A stretch of 10,027 nt of DNA from Candidatus Woesearchaeota archaeon (lineage in GTDB: Archaea; Nanobdellota; Nanobdellia; SCGC-AAA011-G17; GW2011-AR18). Below, piece by piece: positions 82-9,974 of this stretch. The position numbers and the translations under genes were made by a program. The DNA lies in assembly GCA_018302765.1 (NCBI GenBank), contig JAGVZG010000018.1, positions 1 to 10,027 of the forward strand, in the 5' to 3' direction. The notes beneath the pieces are model-generated. The model was not told the origin of the DNA. It saw only the letters and a program-made list of their open reading frames with translations, and searched no databases. Numbering within the stretch: position 1 is the stretch's first letter; each line of letters starts with the position of its first letter.

Positions 82-390
82 TTAGGAATTAATTTGAATA
101 AAAAGGTTTAGTTTTACAAGATGAGATTCATATAATTCACTTATTAATAATATTTTTGGAAAATATTCTTCATTAAAACACTTATCGCACATTTCATTGT
201 GCCAGTCCCTGTTGTGTGTGAATATTTTCTCATTGCATTTTGAACAATTAAAATTCATTTCCTCATCGTGTTTCATATGAAATGTTCTCATCTTTTCTGG
301 ATTTTGATCTTGGCTTATTGTTTCTGCAAAAAATCCTTCAGACCAAAGTTCTCTTCTTTGTTTTGCCTTTGAAATTTTGTGTTTCTTCAT
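82..390 (-). CDS. Small hypothetical protein with a CxxC...H...H...CxxC putative Zn site
   Basis: The ORF track starts at 459, but that overlaps the RNR 3' end. ATG at 390 (MKKHKISK...) lies 16 nt after the RNR stop. Contains CSKC-x5-HNRDWH-x3-CDKC. The last ~25 residues look low-information. Confidence 0.65.
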   Translation of the reverse strand: MKKHKISKAKQRRELWSEGFFAETISQDQNPEKMRTFHMKHDEEMNFNCSKCNEKIFTHNRDWHNEMCDKCFNEEYFPKILLISELYESHLVKLNLFIQINS

Positions 391-406
391 ACTGTTAATT
401 ATATTT

Positions 407-3400
407 CTAGCTACATTCAGAATGTCCACAATCCAAGCATGTAGGAGATGAGCAGCCATTTATATATTCTACATTAGGACTATAGCACTTTACACAATGC
501 TGTTGTTTTACTTCAACATGCATATCTGTTAATTTTTTTTGTTCTTTGTCACCTATTTTTCCTGTTTTGCTTAAATGTCTTTTTAATACTATAGCAATAG
601 CATGCGGTATTGAATCTATTCTATTAGGGCCAAAACCATAAGGACGATCACCTTTTGCTGAATTTAGATGTTTTATGGCTTTCATAGGGTCATATCCTGC
701 CTGGAATGCTTTTGACATGAATACTCCAAGAACAGAGGTCAAGCTACTTAGTTCAGTGCCTATAGGTGGAACTGAGGTAAATATTCTAGATGGACCTTCT
801 TTGTCATAAATTATATTTACATGTAAAGGGCCGTGTCCTGTTTCTATTTCATAATAGTCTGAAGATACTCCTTTGCTATAATCTAACTCTCTGTTTTTTT
901 GTTCTTCTTTTTGTTTTTTTGTTGTTTCTGCTGAAGTTAGGTTCAATACCTGAACTTCTTTACATCCATCCCTATAAACAGTCACTCCTTTGCAGCCTGC
1001 ATTGTAAGCATACAGGTAAGCTTGTTTTATGTCTTCTACGCTTACAGTGTTTGCCATGTTAATTGTTTTTGACACTGCGTTGTCTGTATGTCTCTGAAAT
1101 GCTGCTTGATGGTCTATATGGATCCTCCAATGTATGTCGTGTGAGGATGCAAATATTTTCTGCAGGTTTGTTGGAATTTCTTTTATTCCACGAACAGATG
1201 AATGATTATCTGATATTTTTTTAAGTAATATATTTTTATCTAAGCCGAACCAATTGTGTTTCTCTGCTATTTCTAAGAACAAAGGCACGACTTCGTAATA
1301 AACATATTTTGGATCTGGTTCTTTACCTTCTTTTAAGGCATCAACTGCTTCTGCTTGATAACGTTTATATGCTATAGCAAAGAAAGGCTCTATGCCACTG
1401 CCTTGTAAACCTGCAGTTATTGCTATTGTTCCTGTTGGAGCAATGGTTGTTCTTGCACAATTTCTTGGACATAATTTTTGTCCTCTGAAGTACTCTCCTT
1501 TTTCATCATAAATACTATCTTTGAAATTGTAAAATACTCCTCTTGTCTCTGCTAATTCTTCAGACGCTTCTAATGACTTCAAATTTATAAAACTCATTAT
1601 TTCTTCAGCAAGAGTTATTGCTTCATCTGAATCATATGGAATTTCCAACTTAACCAGCATTTCTGCCCAACCCATAACTCCAAGGCCTATTCTTCTATTC
1701 CCTTTTGACATTACTTCTATTTCTGGCAGTACGTAGTGACTCATATCTATTACATTATCTAAAAAATGCGTTGCCAATTTTGTAGTATATTCTAGTTTTG
1801 TATAATCTACAACATATTTTCCATCTGATTGCTTTACGTGATTTGATAAATTTATACTGCCAAGAGTGCATGGTTCCCAAGGTAGTAATGGTTGTTCACC
1901 ACAAGGATTTGTACTTTCTATTTGTCCCAACTTCGGTGTTGGGTTTGAATTTGTGTTATTTATTCTGTCAACAACTACAAAACCTGGATCTCCTGTTTCC
2001 CATGCGCATTTTGCCATTAAATCAAATAATTCTTTAGCTTTTTCTTTAGCTACTGGCTTTTTTGTTTTTGGATTCAATAAGTCTATTTCATGGTCATTTT
2101 CAACAGCCTTAATAAAATCCTCATCCAATGCTACTGAAATGTTGAAATTTTGAAGGAAGCCACGATCTTTTGATTTCGATACTATGAACTTTCTAACATC
2201 TGGATGTTTGTAGTGCATTATTCCCATATTGGCTCCTCTTCTTGTATTGTGGCTTACAAAACCATTTGCTATGTAAGTATTATTTTCTGGGACAGATAAA
2301 TCTACTGTGTAAGTTTCTCCTTTTGTTAGAGTTTCTACTTTGTCATAAAATTGGTTATTTGTTAAAAACCAATATAATTTACTCTCTTTTATTTCCTTAT
2401 GTTCTTTAGCTAATTCATTAAGTCTTTTGTAAGTTAAATTTCTTTTTTCTTTTACATTTGACATATAATGTTGTATATCTCTATATAAATTTCTATTTGC
2501 ACCTTTACTTACTTTTCCTGGAGCACAACCTCTACCTTGACCATTATATATTAACTTAAAAATCTTTTCTTGATTAGGAATTATATCATTAAATTCCCAT
2601 TTTGTCTCTTCAGTTTTTATTCTTTTATTCTTTTTATCTGATAAGAAACCTATTTCAGAAAATCTTTTTAGACCTCTCTCAGTTATTACTCTTAAAACAT
2701 AAAGAGGATTATTTCCATAACTATTTTTTCTATCTAATTTAATTGACTTACTGGTTGGTATTCCTAAAGATAACATAAGTTGTTGTGTTTCATCTATTAA
2801 TTTTTCAGAAACACTACAAACAGATGGATAACCTTCTTCAGTTATTGTTCCATCTGCTGTAAATATCCCCCTAACAAAACCTTCAGCAAAATACCTTCCG
2901 ACCCTAAATACAATTTCTGGCACTCTTGCTTGTAGAGCAGACTCTTTATTTACACCAATATTTTTTAACCAATGAACTAATGTTGTCCTGCTATAAAAAG
3001 AATTAGTGCTATTATCATTTTCTTTCCTAGTTTCACTTGGTTTTAGACCGAATAGATTTAATATTAGATTATGCATATACTCTTTTACTTCTGGTTCATC
3101 ATCTCCAAAAGATAAAATTAGTCTTCCTGTTCCATTTTCATTTATTGAAAAACAGCCATCGCCTATAAAATAACCTATAAATTCTCCTAACCCTATTGTT
3201 GGTATTTCTGGCAAGATTATGGGTCCTGCATTAAAATGCGCTTCATAATTAAATTCTGGAAATTTATAATTTGTTTCTTCTGGATAACTATCTAGTTGTA
3301 ATGCAAGCCAATCACCTTCTTTTATATTTTTAAGATGTTTCCATACATATTCTCCTTGTTCATTAATTACTCTAAACCTATGTTCTGGTGTTGCTATTAC

Positions 3401-4327
3401 ACTGTAATTATTTTTTGTCTTTATTGTAATAACTTCTGATTTTCCATTATTGTAAGCCTCATCAGAGAGCTTTGGACCTTCATCAGTCATAACAGTAATT
3501 GTGTGGCCTTTCCAATTATTTACTGCAATCTCTTTTACAGGAACGATTTCTCCTATTTGTATTAAACCTTGTTGGGTTGATACTCTTGTATCTAAAGCCA
3601 CGCAACCGCCTTGTTTTACTACTTCTGTTGAAGTATCGAATATTCTCATAAATGAAAGTGGCCCTGAAGCTATTCCTTTTGTAGACTGGACTGGATCTCC
3701 TTCTGGCCTTAATTTACTAAATGAAAAGCCTGTGCCTCCTCCAGATTGATGAATCAAAGCCATGGCAGTTATAGCATAATAAATTTCTTCAATAGAATCT
3801 CCTACAGGCACAACATAGCAAGCATGCAGGCCTTGCAGATCTCTTCCAGCGTTCATTAAACATGGGGAATTAGGCAAGAAGTCAAAGTTAGACAACATAT
3901 TATAAAACTGCTCTTCTTTTTTTCTTAATAAAATAATTGCCTTTGCATTTGTTTGTGCAAGTTTTAATAAATTCTCTTCAAATTTTCTGAAATTGTTTAT
4001 TCTTTCATTTCTAGGCAAATTTTTAAGCTGAAGTAATAACATATGTGATTTTGAATCATGTTCAGATATAATTGTTTGATGGTGCACTCCATCTAAAATA
4101 TGTTCTTTAGGAATTTCATGATCGTAAAATAAATCTGCTAATGCAATGTTTCTAGCAATTCTCCTTAACCATAATTCAACTGAGTCACCTCTTAAATATT
4201 TATTGGCCATTACTTTTAGCTGATTCTCTGTAACTTTGACTTTTGATCCTTCTACAGACAATTCTTCTATAGATTTTAATCCATCAAATGTAGAAACATA
4301 ATCCTCTTTTTTTCTTTCAACCTGCAT
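407..4327 (-). CDS. nrdJ: Class II adenosylcobalamin-dependent ribonucleotide reductase, intein-containing precursor (1306 aa; about 853 aa after splicing)
   Basis: Motifs FLPNSPCLMNAG, LHAC, SGGGTGFSFS, QGG/TRRGANMG, TNPCGEQPL (thiyl-radical Cys), EPCTLGSINL, RRIGLGVMG, TTIAPTGTI, AVSKTIN and KGVTVYRDG. C-terminal TSCPD-like domain (GFGPNRIDSIPHAIA) and a terminal CxxC...CxxC...C ribbon. No N-terminal ATP cone and no adjacent beta-subunit gene. Confidence 0.96.
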   Translation of the reverse strand: MQVERKKEDYVSTFDGLKSIEELSVEGSKVKVTENQLKVMANKYLRGDSVELWLRRIARNIALADLFYDHEIPKEHILDGVHHQTIISEHDSKSHMLLLQLKNLPRNERINNFRKFEENLLKLAQTNAKAIILLRKKEEQFYNMLSNFDFLPNSPCLMNAGRDLQGLHACYVVPVGDSIEEIYYAITAMALIHQSGGGTGFSFSKLRPEGDPVQSTKGIASGPLSFMRIFDTSTEVVKQGGCVALDTRVSTQQGLIQIGEIVPVKEIAVNNWKGHTITVMTDEGPKLSDEAYNNGKSEVITIKTKNNYSVIATPEHRFRVINEQGEYVWKHLKNIKEGDWLALQLDSYPEETNYKFPEFNYEAHFNAGPIILPEIPTIGLGEFIGYFIGDGCFSINENGTGRLILSFGDDEPEVKEYMHNLILNLFGLKPSETRKENDNSTNSFYSRTTLVHWLKNIGVNKESALQARVPEIVFRVGRYFAEGFVRGIFTADGTITEEGYPSVCSVSEKLIDETQQLMLSLGIPTSKSIKLDRKNSYGNNPLYVLRVITERGLKRFSEIGFLSDKKNKRIKTEETKWEFNDIIPNQEKIFKLIYNGQGRGCAPGKVSKGANRNLYRDIQHYMSNVKEKRNLTYKRLNELAKEHKEIKESKLYWFLTNNQFYDKVETLTKGETYTVDLSVPENNTYIANGFVSHNTRRGANMGIMHYKHPDVRKFIVSKSKDRGFLQNFNISVALDEDFIKAVENDHEIDLLNPKTKKPVAKEKAKELFDLMAKCAWETGDPGFVVVDRINNTNSNPTPKLGQIESTNPCGEQPLLPWEPCTLGSINLSNHVKQSDGKYVVDYTKLEYTTKLATHFLDNVIDMSHYVLPEIEVMSKGNRRIGLGVMGWAEMLVKLEIPYDSDEAITLAEEIMSFINLKSLEASEELAETRGVFYNFKDSIYDEKGEYFRGQKLCPRNCARTTIAPTGTIAITAGLQGSGIEPFFAIAYKRYQAEAVDALKEGKEPDPKYVYYEVVPLFLEIAEKHNWFGLDKNILLKKISDNHSSVRGIKEIPTNLQKIFASSHDIHWRIHIDHQAAFQRHTDNAVSKTINMANTVSVEDIKQAYLYAYNAGCKGVTVYRDGCKEVQVLNLTSAETTKKQKEEQKNRELDYSKGVSSDYYEIETGHGPLHVNIIYDKEGPSRIFTSVPPIGTELSSLTSVLGVFMSKAFQAGYDPMKAIKHLNSAKGDRPYGFGPNRIDSIPHAIAIVLKRHLSKTGKIGDKEQKKLTDMHVEVKQQHCVKCYSPNVEYINGCSSPTCLDCGHSECS
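2246..3604 (-). mobile_element. Intein with LAGLIDADG homing endonuclease in nrdJ (453 aa, residues 242-694)
   Basis: Inserted in KQGG|TRRGA. Starts with Cys (CVALDTRV), block B TPEH, two LAGLIDADG motifs (FIGYFIGDGCF and FVRGIFTADGTI), block F/G VDLSVPENNTYIANGFVSHN, and Thr as the +1 nucleophile. Confidence 0.96.
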
Positions 4328-4332
4328 TTATG

Positions 4333-4338
4333 CCACCT
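4333..4338 (-). promoter_or_regulatory. Shine-Dalgarno site AGGTGG for nrdJ, overlapping the nrdR stop codon
   Basis: Minus strand reads GGA TAG GTGG CATAA ATG: AGGTGG sits 5 nt before the nrdJ ATG. This suggests a nrdR-nrdJ operon with translational coupling. Confidence 0.6.
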
Positions 4339-4786
4339 ATCCTTTTTTTAATAGTCCTTGAATTTCTTTTTTGAAATCTTCTATGTCTGCAAATTCCCTG
4401 TAAACAGAGGCAAACCTTATATATGCAACTTTGTCAAGCTGCTTTAAATGTTTTGCAACCTCTTCTCCCAGAGATTTACTTTGGATTTCATTAGCGTCAA
4501 GTGTTCTTAATTTTGCTTCAATTTTGTTTACAATGTTTTCTATCTTTTCTATTTCTATTGGAAGTTTTTCGCATGCCCTTAATATGCCTTTCTTAAGTTT
4601 TTCCCTATCAAATAATTCACGCCTGCCGTCTTTTTTTATTATATAAATCTGCAGCGGCTCTGGTCTTTCATACGTTGTGAACCTTTTTTCACACTTAAGG
4701 CATTCCCTACGCCTTCTTGTTATGTCTTCACTTTCTCTTGAATCTACAACTTTTGTTTCTGTGTGACTGCAAAATATGCATTTCAT
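4337..4786 (-). CDS. nrdR: Transcriptional repressor NrdR (Zn ribbon plus ATP cone)
   Basis: MKCIFC...TKVVDSR...RRRRECLKCEKRFTTYE, ATP cone IIKKDGRRELFDREKL, and C-terminal DKVAYIRFASVYREF. Lies directly upstream of the RNR gene. Confidence 0.97.
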   Translation of the reverse strand: MKCIFCSHTETKVVDSRESEDITRRRRECLKCEKRFTTYERPEPLQIYIIKKDGRRELFDREKLKKGILRACEKLPIEIEKIENIVNKIEAKLRTLDANEIQSKSLGEEVAKHLKQLDKVAYIRFASVYREFADIEDFKKEIQGLLKKG

Positions 4787-4810
4787 TTATGTTTTGTTAC
4801 CCTTGAGTAA

Positions 4811-4826
4811 ACACCATATATTGTGC
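4811..4826. promoter_or_regulatory. NrdR box (start-codon-proximal)
   Basis: ACACCATATATTGTGC matches the bacterial NrdR-box consensus acaCwAtATaTwGtgt at 14 of 16 positions. It lies 24 nt upstream of the nrdR start codon. Confidence 0.88.
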
Positions 4827-4841
4827 TTCACTTAAGTGAAA

Positions 4842-4857
4842 ACACAAAATATGGTAT
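4842..4857. promoter_or_regulatory. NrdR box (promoter-proximal)
   Basis: ACACAAAATATGGTAT matches the consensus at 13 of 16 positions. It starts exactly 31 bp after the first box, the spacing known for tandem NrdR boxes. Confidence 0.8.
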
Positions 4858-4873
4858 TTAGTTGGTGTTCTTG

Positions 4874-4888
4874 TTTATATATTTTTCT
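4874..4888 (-). promoter_or_regulatory. Archaeal BRE/TATA promoter for nrdR-nrdJ
   Basis: Minus strand AGAAAAA-TATATAAA, with TATA at 4881-4874. This predicts a start site near 4850-4853, inside NrdR box 2. Confidence 0.62.
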
Positions 4889-4964
4889 TAACTTTGGAAT
4901 ATGTTTTGTTATATTGGTACTATTTTAGATCTAAATATGGCTAAAGATTTTAATTTGGATCTTT

Positions 4965-6101
4965 TTAGTAAAATTGTTTAGCTAATCTTGGACCTGTTTG
5001 ACCCTGATACGTACTTCCATCGCCATATAATTTATTTGGAATATCTATTGTTCTTTCTGGTTTTAAAACTGCAATAGGCTGTCTGTGGCTTATCGTTCTT
5101 GGACTCCTCGAAACAACCAGTTCAAGCACTGCAGTAGAACCTAGTATTTTTTTATTTCTGCCTTTTCCAAATGCATTGTCAAAAAAACCAGCCTCATTTG
5201 ACTTATCATCACCTAACGTTAAGTCATACTGGACCATCTTGGCACATATTGAATGAGGTATTGATGGCATTTCATACGTGGGAAGTATAATCATAGTTGC
5301 GTCCCACAATCTTAGTAAACCATCTTCTGGCTTTCTTATTTCTTGCCAATACTGCTCTTTTCTTGCTGATTGTCCTTTTTCATATTGGATTGGTAGATCA
5401 TTATAAGCAGGAATATAGCCAACAGTTTCATCAGAAAGATCTACCGTTAGTACTAAACCACCATTAATTAACTCTCTAGTTGGTGGCATAGGCCTGCCTT
5501 CCTTATCATAAACTAATGTTTCTTTTAAGTGCAGATCCATTAATTCATCGTCATCAATAGTTGCATCGCCGTTGTAAAATCTTATTTGCTCAATGCTATC
5601 GCCTTTTCTAAGAACTTCCAAAAAAGCCATTGAAGTAAATTCCAAATATAATTTCCCTTCATAGCCTGCAGGAATTTTATTATATCTTGAATTATGGTCT
5701 GTTACTAATCTACACCTAAAAAAATTCCTTCCTGCTGTGCTCTTTGTATCTGCTTCTCCATATATATTTGGCGGCAAAGATAAAAATTCATTTAATTCAA
5801 CAACATAAGTTACATTTCTTTCTACTGGTTTTGGTTCACCAACATCAATGCCTATTGTATAAAGTGAGCAATTCTTTAATACTTGCTCTACAGTTTCATT
5901 GGCAGATGGAGGTTTGAAATTTGCCACCCTGTGTATTGGCCCAAATAATCTTGTATCTAGTGTGGCTGGTTGCAGTTGATTTTCTAGCCAACTTTCATTT
6001 ACTGGACTCTGAAATTTTACTGCTTTAAATTTATCTATTAATATGTCTTTAATATGTTGGCTTGGTAAAACACCCTTTACGTCAAAACTTAATTCAGACA
6101 T
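4965..6101 (-). CDS. dcd: Two-domain dCTP deaminase-like protein (long DCD family, dUTPase fold), divergent
   Basis: VLPSQHI, QLQPATLDTRL, TKSTAGR, IPAGYEGKLYLEF, EQIRF, TVDL, AGFFDNAFG, AVLE and YQGQ..PRLAKQF match the ~370-aa bacterial-type DCD family from memory. The context is dNTP metabolism. Confidence 0.8.
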   Translation of the reverse strand: MSELSFDVKGVLPSQHIKDILIDKFKAVKFQSPVNESWLENQLQPATLDTRLFGPIHRVANFKPPSANETVEQVLKNCSLYTIGIDVGEPKPVERNVTYVVELNEFLSLPPNIYGEADTKSTAGRNFFRCRLVTDHNSRYNKIPAGYEGKLYLEFTSMAFLEVLRKGDSIEQIRFYNGDATIDDDELMDLHLKETLVYDKEGRPMPPTRELINGGLVLTVDLSDETVGYIPAYNDLPIQYEKGQSARKEQYWQEIRKPEDGLLRLWDATMIILPTYEMPSIPHSICAKMVQYDLTLGDDKSNEAGFFDNAFGKGRNKKILGSTAVLELVVSRSPRTISHRQPIAVLKPERTIDIPNKLYGDGSTYQGQTGPRLAKQFY

Positions 6102-7947: not shown

Positions 7948-8052
7948 TTTCTATAACAACTCGAAAAGGTTTATTAATGTTTTGAGAATATTTCTTAAAA
8001 TAGATTATTTTCTAGATAAAATTTTATAAATACTGTGCTTTATTTTTTAAAA
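7948..8052. promoter_or_regulatory. Divergent promoter region between ABCE1 and thymidine kinase
   Basis: TTAATAAA (minus, 7977-7970) ends 22 nt before the ABCE1 ATG. TTTATAAA (plus, 8023-8030) ends 22 nt before the ATG at 8053. Confidence 0.55.
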
Positions 8053-9231
8053 ATGATAATAGAACTAGAGGCGCTTAGAGGTGAATTGATCCTTATAACT
8101 GGCGTTATGAATTCTGGAAAAACCCAGGAAGTAATAAATACTATTGACTGTTTAATGCACAGTCCCCATAGAAGAGCATTTATGGCTTTTACAAATAGCA
8201 GAAATACAAGAGATGGAATAAAAAGATTTGTCTCTTCTAGCGGCCTTAGATCTGATGAAGTATTTGTAGCCAATGCAGAAAATCCAATAGAAATCTATGA
8301 AAAAATAAGAGAAAAAGAAGTTGTTGATGGGATGCAGAATATTTTTATTTTTGATGAAGGAAACCTACATACTTACAAATTTGTACCTGTTGTAAAGGAC
8401 TTAATGAAAAATGGTAAGGTTGTTGTTGTAGCTGGTTTGAATTTGGATTTTAGGGGAGAATTCTTTGGTCCTATGGGAAAATTAGAAGAAATAGCAAGAA
8501 GCAGAGAAGCAATTACTGGAAAAAAACTTGTAGATATGCATCATTCTTACTGCTGTATTCTTCGTGACGAGAAACAATGCGGCAAAAAGGCATCATACAC
8601 ATTTAGATTAATTAAGGCAGAAAATGATGGTAATCTTGGTTATTTTCATGAAGGGGTTTTATTTAACAGTTATATAAAAGCACCTTATCATCACCCAACA
8701 ATTTTAGTTGAGGGTTCTGTTGGAGGCATAAAATATACAACTGCATGTTCAGAATGTTTTGGTGAACTACCTGGAAAGAGTTTAGTAGCAGATTTATTAT
8801 CTTATACAATGGATCATGAGAATTCTAAATACAATGATTTAGTAGACAGGTTTTCTAAACAAGGAGATATTTGCGACGCTCTAGCATACACTATTGAAGA
8901 GAAAAGATTAGACATGTTTGACGGAATCTATAGATCAAGAATTAAATCTGGAGGTTTAAATGATAAAGAATCAAGAAAGCTAGTAGAAATAAGCAAAGCA
9001 AGAGATTCAAGCAGAGAAAGCCATGACACTTTTGATATTTATCACGAAATAAAAAGTAGAAGAAGCATATCAAGAGAAGGGTTAAAATATAAATTTGGAA
9101 AAATTATGGGTTTTGAAAGAATTCTTGCTGATTTAATAAAAGCCAGGTTTTTAATGCTTGATGACGCAATGTTAAAAACAACGCGTTATGTAAAAGACCC
9201 AGTTTCAGATATGTATATTCCTCTAGATTAA
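8053..9231 (+). CDS. tdk: Thymidine kinase (TK1-like) with a ~156-aa C-terminal extension
   Basis: Walker A GVMNSGKT, FDEG, VVVAGLNLDFRGEFFG, and Zn lasso C..QCG / YTTACSEC. ATG 8053 is preferred over GTG 8035 because of TATA spacing. Confidence 0.85.
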   Translation: MIIELEALRGELILITGVMNSGKTQEVINTIDCLMHSPHRRAFMAFTNSRNTRDGIKRFVSSSGLRSDEVFVANAENPIEIYEKIREKEVVDGMQNIFIFDEGNLHTYKFVPVVKDLMKNGKVVVVAGLNLDFRGEFFGPMGKLEEIARSREAITGKKLVDMHHSYCCILRDEKQCGKKASYTFRLIKAENDGNLGYFHEGVLFNSYIKAPYHHPTILVEGSVGGIKYTTACSECFGELPGKSLVADLLSYTMDHENSKYNDLVDRFSKQGDICDALAYTIEEKRLDMFDGIYRSRIKSGGLNDKESRKLVEISKARDSSRESHDTFDIYHEIKSRRSISREGLKYKFGKIMGFERILADLIKARFLMLDDAMLKTTRYVKDPVSDMYIPLD

Positions 9232-9784: not shown

Positions 9785-9813
9785 TTCGCCCTCGTAGCTT
9801 AATGGCAGAGCAA

Positions 9814-9825
9814 TTTTAAGCTTAA
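9814..9825 (+). other. 12-nt non-canonical tRNA intron at position 27/28
   Basis: The AATT repeat allows five registers, and only 27/28 yields a BHB: outer helix GGCA/TGCT, bulge AA^T, central helix GAGC/GCTT, bulge AA^T. Confidence 0.72.
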
Positions 9826-9835
9826 TTGCTTCGTA

Positions 9836-9871
9836 TACAATCTTTTGCATAAAGCTTGAGTAAAGTGAAAG
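9836..9871 (+). other. 36-nt canonical tRNA intron at position 37/38
   Basis: Central helix TTCG(32-35)/TGAA and 3' bulge AG^A against the anticodon stem. The intron-side flanking helix is imperfect, so this is a relaxed BHB/BHL. Confidence 0.8.
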
Positions 9872-9974
9872 AGCAATAGGTTGAGGGTTCAACTCCCTCC
9901 GAGGGCTATATTATTTATTTCTGTTAAGTAGGCTCTGTCCTGAATCTAAGTTCTAAGAATATTTATTAACCCAC

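Follow-up and report, generated by a model that had tools for sequence, protein, structure and literature searches.

A tandem NrdR operator predicted downstream of an archaeal TATA box at the nrdR-nrdJ operon of a DPANN archaeon

Introduction

The closest described system is the nrdRJ operon of S. coelicolor (PDB 7P37, 7P3F, 7P3Q; PMC9110341), in which an autoregulated nrdR precedes nrdJ, the gene for a class II ribonucleotide reductase (RNR). Its NrdR consists of a Zn ribbon and an ATP-cone and acts at an operator of two 16-bp boxes with a 15-16 bp linker, the boxes overlapping the site of a sigma-70-type RNA polymerase. In E. coli (PDB 9FVR, 9FXK; PMC12176259, PMC13584703), nrdR lies apart from the RNR operons and controls three of them, nrdAB, nrdHIEF and nrdDG, through operators with strict box spacing and the positions C4, A6, A8, T9, T11 and G13. 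A 2026 mutational study (PMC13584703) gave these as the conserved NrdR-box positions and a linker of 15-16 bp as required.

For archaea, the literature on NrdR is inconsistent. A 2014 review (PMC4009431) and a 2025 preprint (10.1101/2025.03.28.645925) describe NrdR or its boxes as absent from archaea, whereas NrdR has been reported in "some archaea" (PMC9110341) and, by another group, in 22% of archaeal genomes (PMC13584703). The haloarchaeal nrdR-nrdAB and nrdR-nrdBA operons, in which an archaeal NrdR gene heads an RNR operon, were acquired from bacteria, and their operators were not described (Lundin et al. 2010, PMC3019208). A literature search combining NrdR with DPANN, TATA, Haloferax and Woesearchaeota turned up no description of operators for archaeal NrdR, or of how these relate to TATA. 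A first-pass annotation of the DNA studied here had called such a circuit uncharacterised in archaea; this stands for the operator, but not for the presence of NrdR itself, which is published (PMC9110341, PMC13584703). Since NrdR in archaea is already known, the novelty of the locus is modest.

Here we analyse an nrdR-nrdJ locus in a stretch of archaeal DNA of 10,027 nt, referred to as a whole as the window. The locus resembles the S. coelicolor operon in gene order, in predicted autoregulation, in its operator of two 16-bp boxes and in an NrdR with the same two domains and the DNA-contact residues kept. It differs in that its boxes lie after a BRE/TATA and over the predicted start, and in that its NrdJ carries an intein. 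With the E. coli operators it shares the six conserved positions and the strict box spacing, although the window genome has one such operator and its second NrdJ has no boxes. Unlike the class I haloarchaeal operons, which are recent transfers into Halobacteria, it encodes a class II enzyme and belongs to a phylum in which most sampled genomes have NrdR.

Results

The window is an entire contig (C8) of a metagenome-assembled genome of 1.02 Mb in 28 contigs, rated 100% complete, with a GC content of about 0.30. The host is a Woesearchaeales-type DPANN archaeon: among named records, the nearest are MAGs of Woesearchaeota, Nanoarchaeota or Nanoarchaeia, and the window's own archaeal order supplies the closest NrdRs and loci. 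No archaeal SSU rRNA was found when the assembly was searched. The first-pass annotation had considered that the contig might prove bacterial. It is archaeal, as indicated by ABCE1/RLI and an intron-containing tRNA on the contig itself, by a GC content equal to that of the rest of the genome, and by the transcription machinery of the host, which uses TBP/TFB rather than sigma factors: TBP is present, and a search of the 100%-complete genome for sigma-70 region 2 did not find it. The tRNA gene is missed by ARAGORN at default settings, and Rfam detects the same gene.

9788-9907, plus strand: tRNA-Ser with intron, 120 nt (Rfam; ARAGORN with introns allowed)

The operon and its surroundings comprise the following genes.

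6101-4965, minus strand: dcd, a bifunctional-type dCTP deaminase gene, upstream of nrdR
4337..4786, minus strand: nrdR, 149 aa, Zn ribbon and ATP-cone (Pfam PF22811, PF03477; TIGR00244)
407..4327, minus strand: nrdJ, class II (B12-dependent) ribonucleotide reductase, 1306 aa, without ATP-cone
~2246-3481, minus strand: LAGLIDADG intein in NrdJ, residues ~283-694 (Pfam Intein_splicing, LAGLIDADG_3)
82-459, minus strand: ORF of 125 aa with no Pfam match, overlapping the nrdJ 3' end by 53 nt

The intergenic region between dcd and nrdR measures 178 bp, and 9 bp separate the nrdR stop from the start of nrdJ, which has a GGTGG ribosome-binding site in front of it. Of 32 loci fetched from relatives within the order, 24 include nrdJ after nrdR.

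By its domains and residues, the window protein is a full, canonical NrdR, for which DNA binding and dATP/ATP dependence are predicted. The Zn ribbon (PF22811) covers residues 1-40 with an E-value of 3.8e-17 and contains in translation two CxxC motifs, C3/C6 and C29/C32, while the ATP-cone (PF03477) covers residues 47-134 with an E-value of 2.3e-22. The TIGR00244 score is 184.3 bits, against a curated equivalog cut-off of 124.65. Solved NrdR structures align with the protein from end to end, the best match over the full length being E. coli NrdR (E 3e-38). Of the S. coelicolor DNA contacts listed in PMC9110341, the protein retains D15 and R17; its K12, RRRR run (R24-R27) and R35 align with R12, R26-29 and R37 once a 2-residue gap is allowed for.

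The intergenic region upstream of nrdR carries the candidate regulatory features, listed here in the direction of transcription.

4896..4928, minus strand: upstream element CTA(W)3TAG-TAcTAA ... cATATT, from the family alignment, ~40 nt upstream of TATA
4882..4889, minus strand: BRE-like purine-rich stretch aagaaaaa, abutting TATA upstream; by consensus only, and A-rich in relatives too
4874..4881, minus strand: archaeal TATA box TATATAAA, of the tRNA-promoter class; TATAAA in the family alignment
4849..4853, minus strand: predicted transcription start, ~4851, 22-24 nt after the TATA 8-mer by tRNA calibration
4842..4857, minus strand: distal NrdR box ATACCATATTTTGTGT, a consensus match kept in relatives
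4827..4841, minus strand: linker of 15 bp, TTCACTTAAGTGAA, palindromic here and variable among relatives
4811..4826, minus strand: proximal NrdR box GCACAATATATGGTGT, a consensus match and the more strongly conserved of the pair
4797..4802, minus strand: Shine-Dalgarno-like GGGTAA, 10-15 nt before the nrdR ATG; GGT kept in family relatives

The two boxes are a predicted NrdR operator, lying 24 nt upstream of the nrdR ATG and 16 nt downstream of TATA. Compared with the consensus ACACWATATATWGTGT, the proximal box has 2 mismatches and the weaker distal box 3, and C4, A6, A8, T9, T11 and G13 are all kept in both 16-bp boxes, whose starts lie 31 bp apart and thereby leave the linker of 15 bp. At up to 3 mismatches the window contains 2 matches to the consensus, against 0.34 expected. 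Genome-wide, single matches number 36, and the nrdR operator is the sole tandem pair whose members lie within 60 bp of each other; chance would give about 0.005 pairs at a spacing of 30-33 bp for 36 sites in 1.02 Mb. The tandem pair that the first-pass annotation had placed upstream of nrdR-nrdJ is thus confirmed, with all six positions kept, as the only one in the genome. The loose core expression from the literature, C.W.WW.W.G repeated at 20-23 nt, gave 217 pairs genome-wide against 205 expected; such chance-level matching in an AT-rich genome makes it uninformative here, and the full 16-bp consensus was therefore used alone. As a separate observation, the linker at 4827-4841 holds a perfect 14-bp palindrome in the window genome, which turns the entire 47-bp operator into a single extended inverted repeat, unlike the operator of the closest relative (locus L010).

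The promoter was assigned by combining consensus with a calibration on the genome's own tRNA genes. In 13 of the 23 tRNA genes found, a TATA box of one class (TTTATAAA, TATATAAA, CTTATAAA) ends 22-26 nt (mode 23) upstream of the mature 5' end; the genome-wide density of the motif is 0.0037 per base. The BRE/TATA upstream of nrdR, which had earlier been placed at 4888-4874, was found at 4889-4874 on the minus strand. Because the distances at tRNA genes put transcription starts at most ~23 nt after TATA, nrdR transcription would begin at ~4851, about position 7 of the distal box, in agreement with the earlier placement of the start inside this box; the boxes would then span about -6 to +41. A scan for sigma-70 promoters at 4300-5100 was at chance level, with 3 found against 3.1 expected.

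In the element at 4896-4928, cATATT follows the CTA(W)3TAG-TAcTAA part by ~15 nt. The element is kept in relatives with or without dcd upstream, and its 12-mer has 6 copies in the genome; it is no genome-wide motif. We rejected it as a third NrdR box: its C and G are closer by one base than those of an NrdR box, a shortening that abolished NrdR binding in E. coli (PMC13584703). Possible alternatives are a second promoter (TAAAATAG, initiating near ATATT) and a site for another factor.

The box pair recurs widely among archaea. Of 41 genomes sampled as relatives, most of them from the window's family and order, 29 have the NrdR Zn ribbon, as do 233 of 301 (77%) sampled genomes of the phylum, each at least 90% complete, a tally in which the unpublished genomes G265 and G266 are counted. 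Several of the phylum's genomes have this ribbon at the start of ORFs of 770-875 aa (for example G143:C1:22696-22821, G170:C14:13875-13997 and G057:C11:15237-15359), which are presumably NrdR-RNR fusions. We collected 75 non-redundant archaeal loci with the box pair, and in 74 of these the box starts lie 31 or 32 bp apart. The box logos from these loci reproduce the bacterial rule of C4, A6, A8, T9, T11 and G13, with C4 present in 75/75, G13 in 72-74, A6 in 72-74 and T11 in 73-74. Conservation in orthologous loci, on which the first-pass annotation had made its reading depend, therefore holds, and it extends to the promoter, since TATA stands upstream of the distal box in 69/75 loci. In the alignment of the window's family, TATA and both boxes are kept while the linker and the TATA-to-box spacer vary, a pattern that constitutes a phylogenetic footprint.

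A conserved distance from TATA to box had also been raised. TATA does lie within 30 nt of the distal box in these 69 loci (2-27 nt upstream), but the gaps fall into three groups rather than one, at 8-10 nt (13 TATA matches), 14-19 nt (mode 16, as in the window) and 24-27 nt, with hardly any in between. It is conceivable, if rather doubtful, that this position is quantised by a helix-face or contact constraint of the NrdR tetramer with TBP/TFB/RNAP, combined with an exchange of the module between DPANN and CPR in which the operator stayed as it was and only the basal promoter elements around it were remade.

Five relatives without nrdR (96-100% complete) offer a comparison. None of their eight class II RNR loci carries a box pair above background, the scores being 28-32 against 43-44 at nrdR-positive loci. 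The joint absence of boxes and nrdR is partly trivial, as the boxes adjoin nrdR itself.

The most similar bacterial NrdRs sampled come from CPR bacteria (Levybacteria/Microgenomates and relatives) and are 57-60% identical to the window protein. In 46 non-redundant CPR loci the same box pair stands upstream of nrdR. A TTGAC -35 element has its first base 3-7 nt ahead of the distal box in 45/46, and a -10-like TAnnnT hexamer lies in the linker region in 45/46; an archaeal-type TATA was found upstream in 2/46. One operator thus appears to be used with two basal promoters: in CPR it covers -35/-10, whereas in archaea, the window included, it would cover the predicted start and leader downstream of TATA. 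This comparison agrees with the earlier description of the locus as a bacterial operator set on an archaeal promoter. Clostridial nrdR genes hardly ever come with their own boxes: of the 79 loci scored, 1 reached the threshold.

A quick maximum-likelihood tree of 147 NrdRs groups the non-CPR bacteria in one clade (SH-aLRT 99) and the CPR in another (SH-aLRT 98), the latter among poorly resolved archaeal rows; the window protein falls in an all-archaeal group of 48 rows (SH-aLRT 90). An AU test on a 54-row subset did not reject the placement of all archaeal rows together (p-AU 0.67). Tree and test are consistent with long vertical inheritance in DPANN and a small number of inter-domain events. 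Phylogeny, which had been proposed as a check on horizontal transfer from bacteria, thus answers in part: the archaeal rows may stand together, and the tree gives no direction, so that a bacterial origin of NrdR is an assumption from its distribution. One locus labelled Candidatus Nanoarchaeia (L054, DATBWR010000004.1) has an NrdR that groups with a Saccharimonadales sequence (SH-aLRT 99) and an operator preceded by TTGACA with no TATA box; a mislabelled bin or a bacterial contig is the probable cause.

Discussion

Taken together, the sequence evidence makes it highly probable that a canonical NrdR and a canonical tandem operator autoregulate the nrdR-nrdJ operon from an ordinary archaeal BRE/TATA promoter. 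The circuit is expected to work as follows. When dATP rises relative to ATP, the ATP-cone would favour the DNA-binding NrdR tetramer, and the tetramer loaded with dATP and ATP would occupy both boxes, as in bacteria. TBP and TFB would probably still be able to bind BRE/TATA, 16 nt upstream, while the recruitment of RNA polymerase or the formation of the open complex at the start would be blocked. The synthesis of NrdR, and with it that of the ATP-cone-less NrdJ, would then stop.

Blocking of RNA polymerase at the start site is the most likely mechanism judging by position alone, that is, by an operator that lies downstream of TATA and over the predicted start. The archaeal repressors MDR1, LrpA and Phr bind just downstream of TATA, over the start site. 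The predicted operator has the same position relative to TATA and to the predicted start, and it is from this likeness that we infer a block of polymerase recruitment. The likeness does not extend to the proteins, as these repressors belong to the DtxR, Lrp and wHTH families, whereas NrdR is a Zn-ribbon/ATP-cone tetramer that would span ~47 bp.

The strongest competing explanation, which we nevertheless regard as improbable, accepts that NrdR binds the boxes but has it displace or prevent the binding of TBP/TFB, or bend the DNA and so disrupt the pre-initiation complex. RNA polymerase in archaeal pre-initiation complexes occupies about -12 to +18. Overlap with this polymerase-occupied region is common to all the gap classes. 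The class with the distal box only 8-10 nt after TATA does come near the TFB/TBP footprint, but the gap is 16 nt in the window, and in the remaining class it is 24-27 nt, which lies past the usual footprint. The sharp bend that NrdR imposes on DNA in the solved complex (PMC9110341) would fit a disruption of the complex.

It is very unlikely, and as a main explanation we rejected it, that the paired palindromes act chiefly in RNA, as a hairpin of the 5' leader affecting stability or translation, with NrdR binding secondary or absent. The leader at 4857-4787 does fold at -22.5 kcal/mol, compared with -10.1 for shuffles (z = -4.9), and complementarity between the boxes over the 75 loci amounts to 912, compared with 881 +/- 9 in shuffled pairings. 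Yet mutual pairing is built into any two copies of a single palindromic consensus, so that box-box pairing in the leader follows from the shared consensus, and the excess in pairing is only 2.6 percentage points, which relatedness or clade-specific box preferences would explain. Moreover, the conserved positions are those that NrdR contacts in bacteria, the linker is not conserved, the predicted start cuts off part of the 5' arm, and boxes are missing where nrdR is missing. Rfam gave no match, permissive E-values yielding only chance matches far below gathering scores. A supplementary effect in RNA, on top of NrdR binding, is conceivable.

The least probable reading, that a bacterial fragment was mis-binned as this contig or that the boxes match by chance in AT-rich DNA, could appeal to a short 10-kb contig in a metagenome-assembled genome and to the chance-level performance of the loose core expression, but was tested and rejected in view of ABCE1/RLI and the intron-containing tRNA on the same contig, a GC content like that of the genome, closest NrdRs and loci from the same archaeal order, and a full-consensus pair that occurs once in the genome and is kept in 75 loci.

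An NrdR circuit in archaea is conceptually unsurprising, since most archaeal regulators are of bacterial type. If the autoregulatory reading is correct, the dATP/ATP-sensing NrdR switch is no bacterial speciality, as it would operate on TATA promoters in a phylum where 77% of 301 genomes encode it, and the same 47-bp operator would serve two unrelated basal transcription machineries through placement alone. For DPANN biology, it would belong to the small number of regulator-operator pairs open to confident prediction.

The genome encodes a second class II RNR with an ATP-cone of its own.

G000 contig C25:10499-11890 (locus L113 1381-3471), minus strand: second class II NrdJ, 696 aa, with N-terminal ATP-cone

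A gene for cob(I)yrinic acid a,c-diamide adenosyltransferase comes after this second nrdJ. A search for NrdR boxes upstream of it on contig C25 found none, so NrdR presumably does not control all ribonucleotide reduction in this organism. The arrangement suggests a division of labour in which the window NrdJ would be controlled transcriptionally by NrdR, and the second NrdJ by allosteric dATP feedback through its own ATP-cone.

A further gene in the window, at 8035-9231 on the plus strand, encodes a 398-aa protein whose C-terminal ~200 residues match no family and whose first ~195 residues match thymidine kinase, below NCBIfam cut-offs. This thymidine-kinase-like gene, together with dcd, nrdR and nrdJ, makes up a small cluster for dNTP metabolism around ABCE1.
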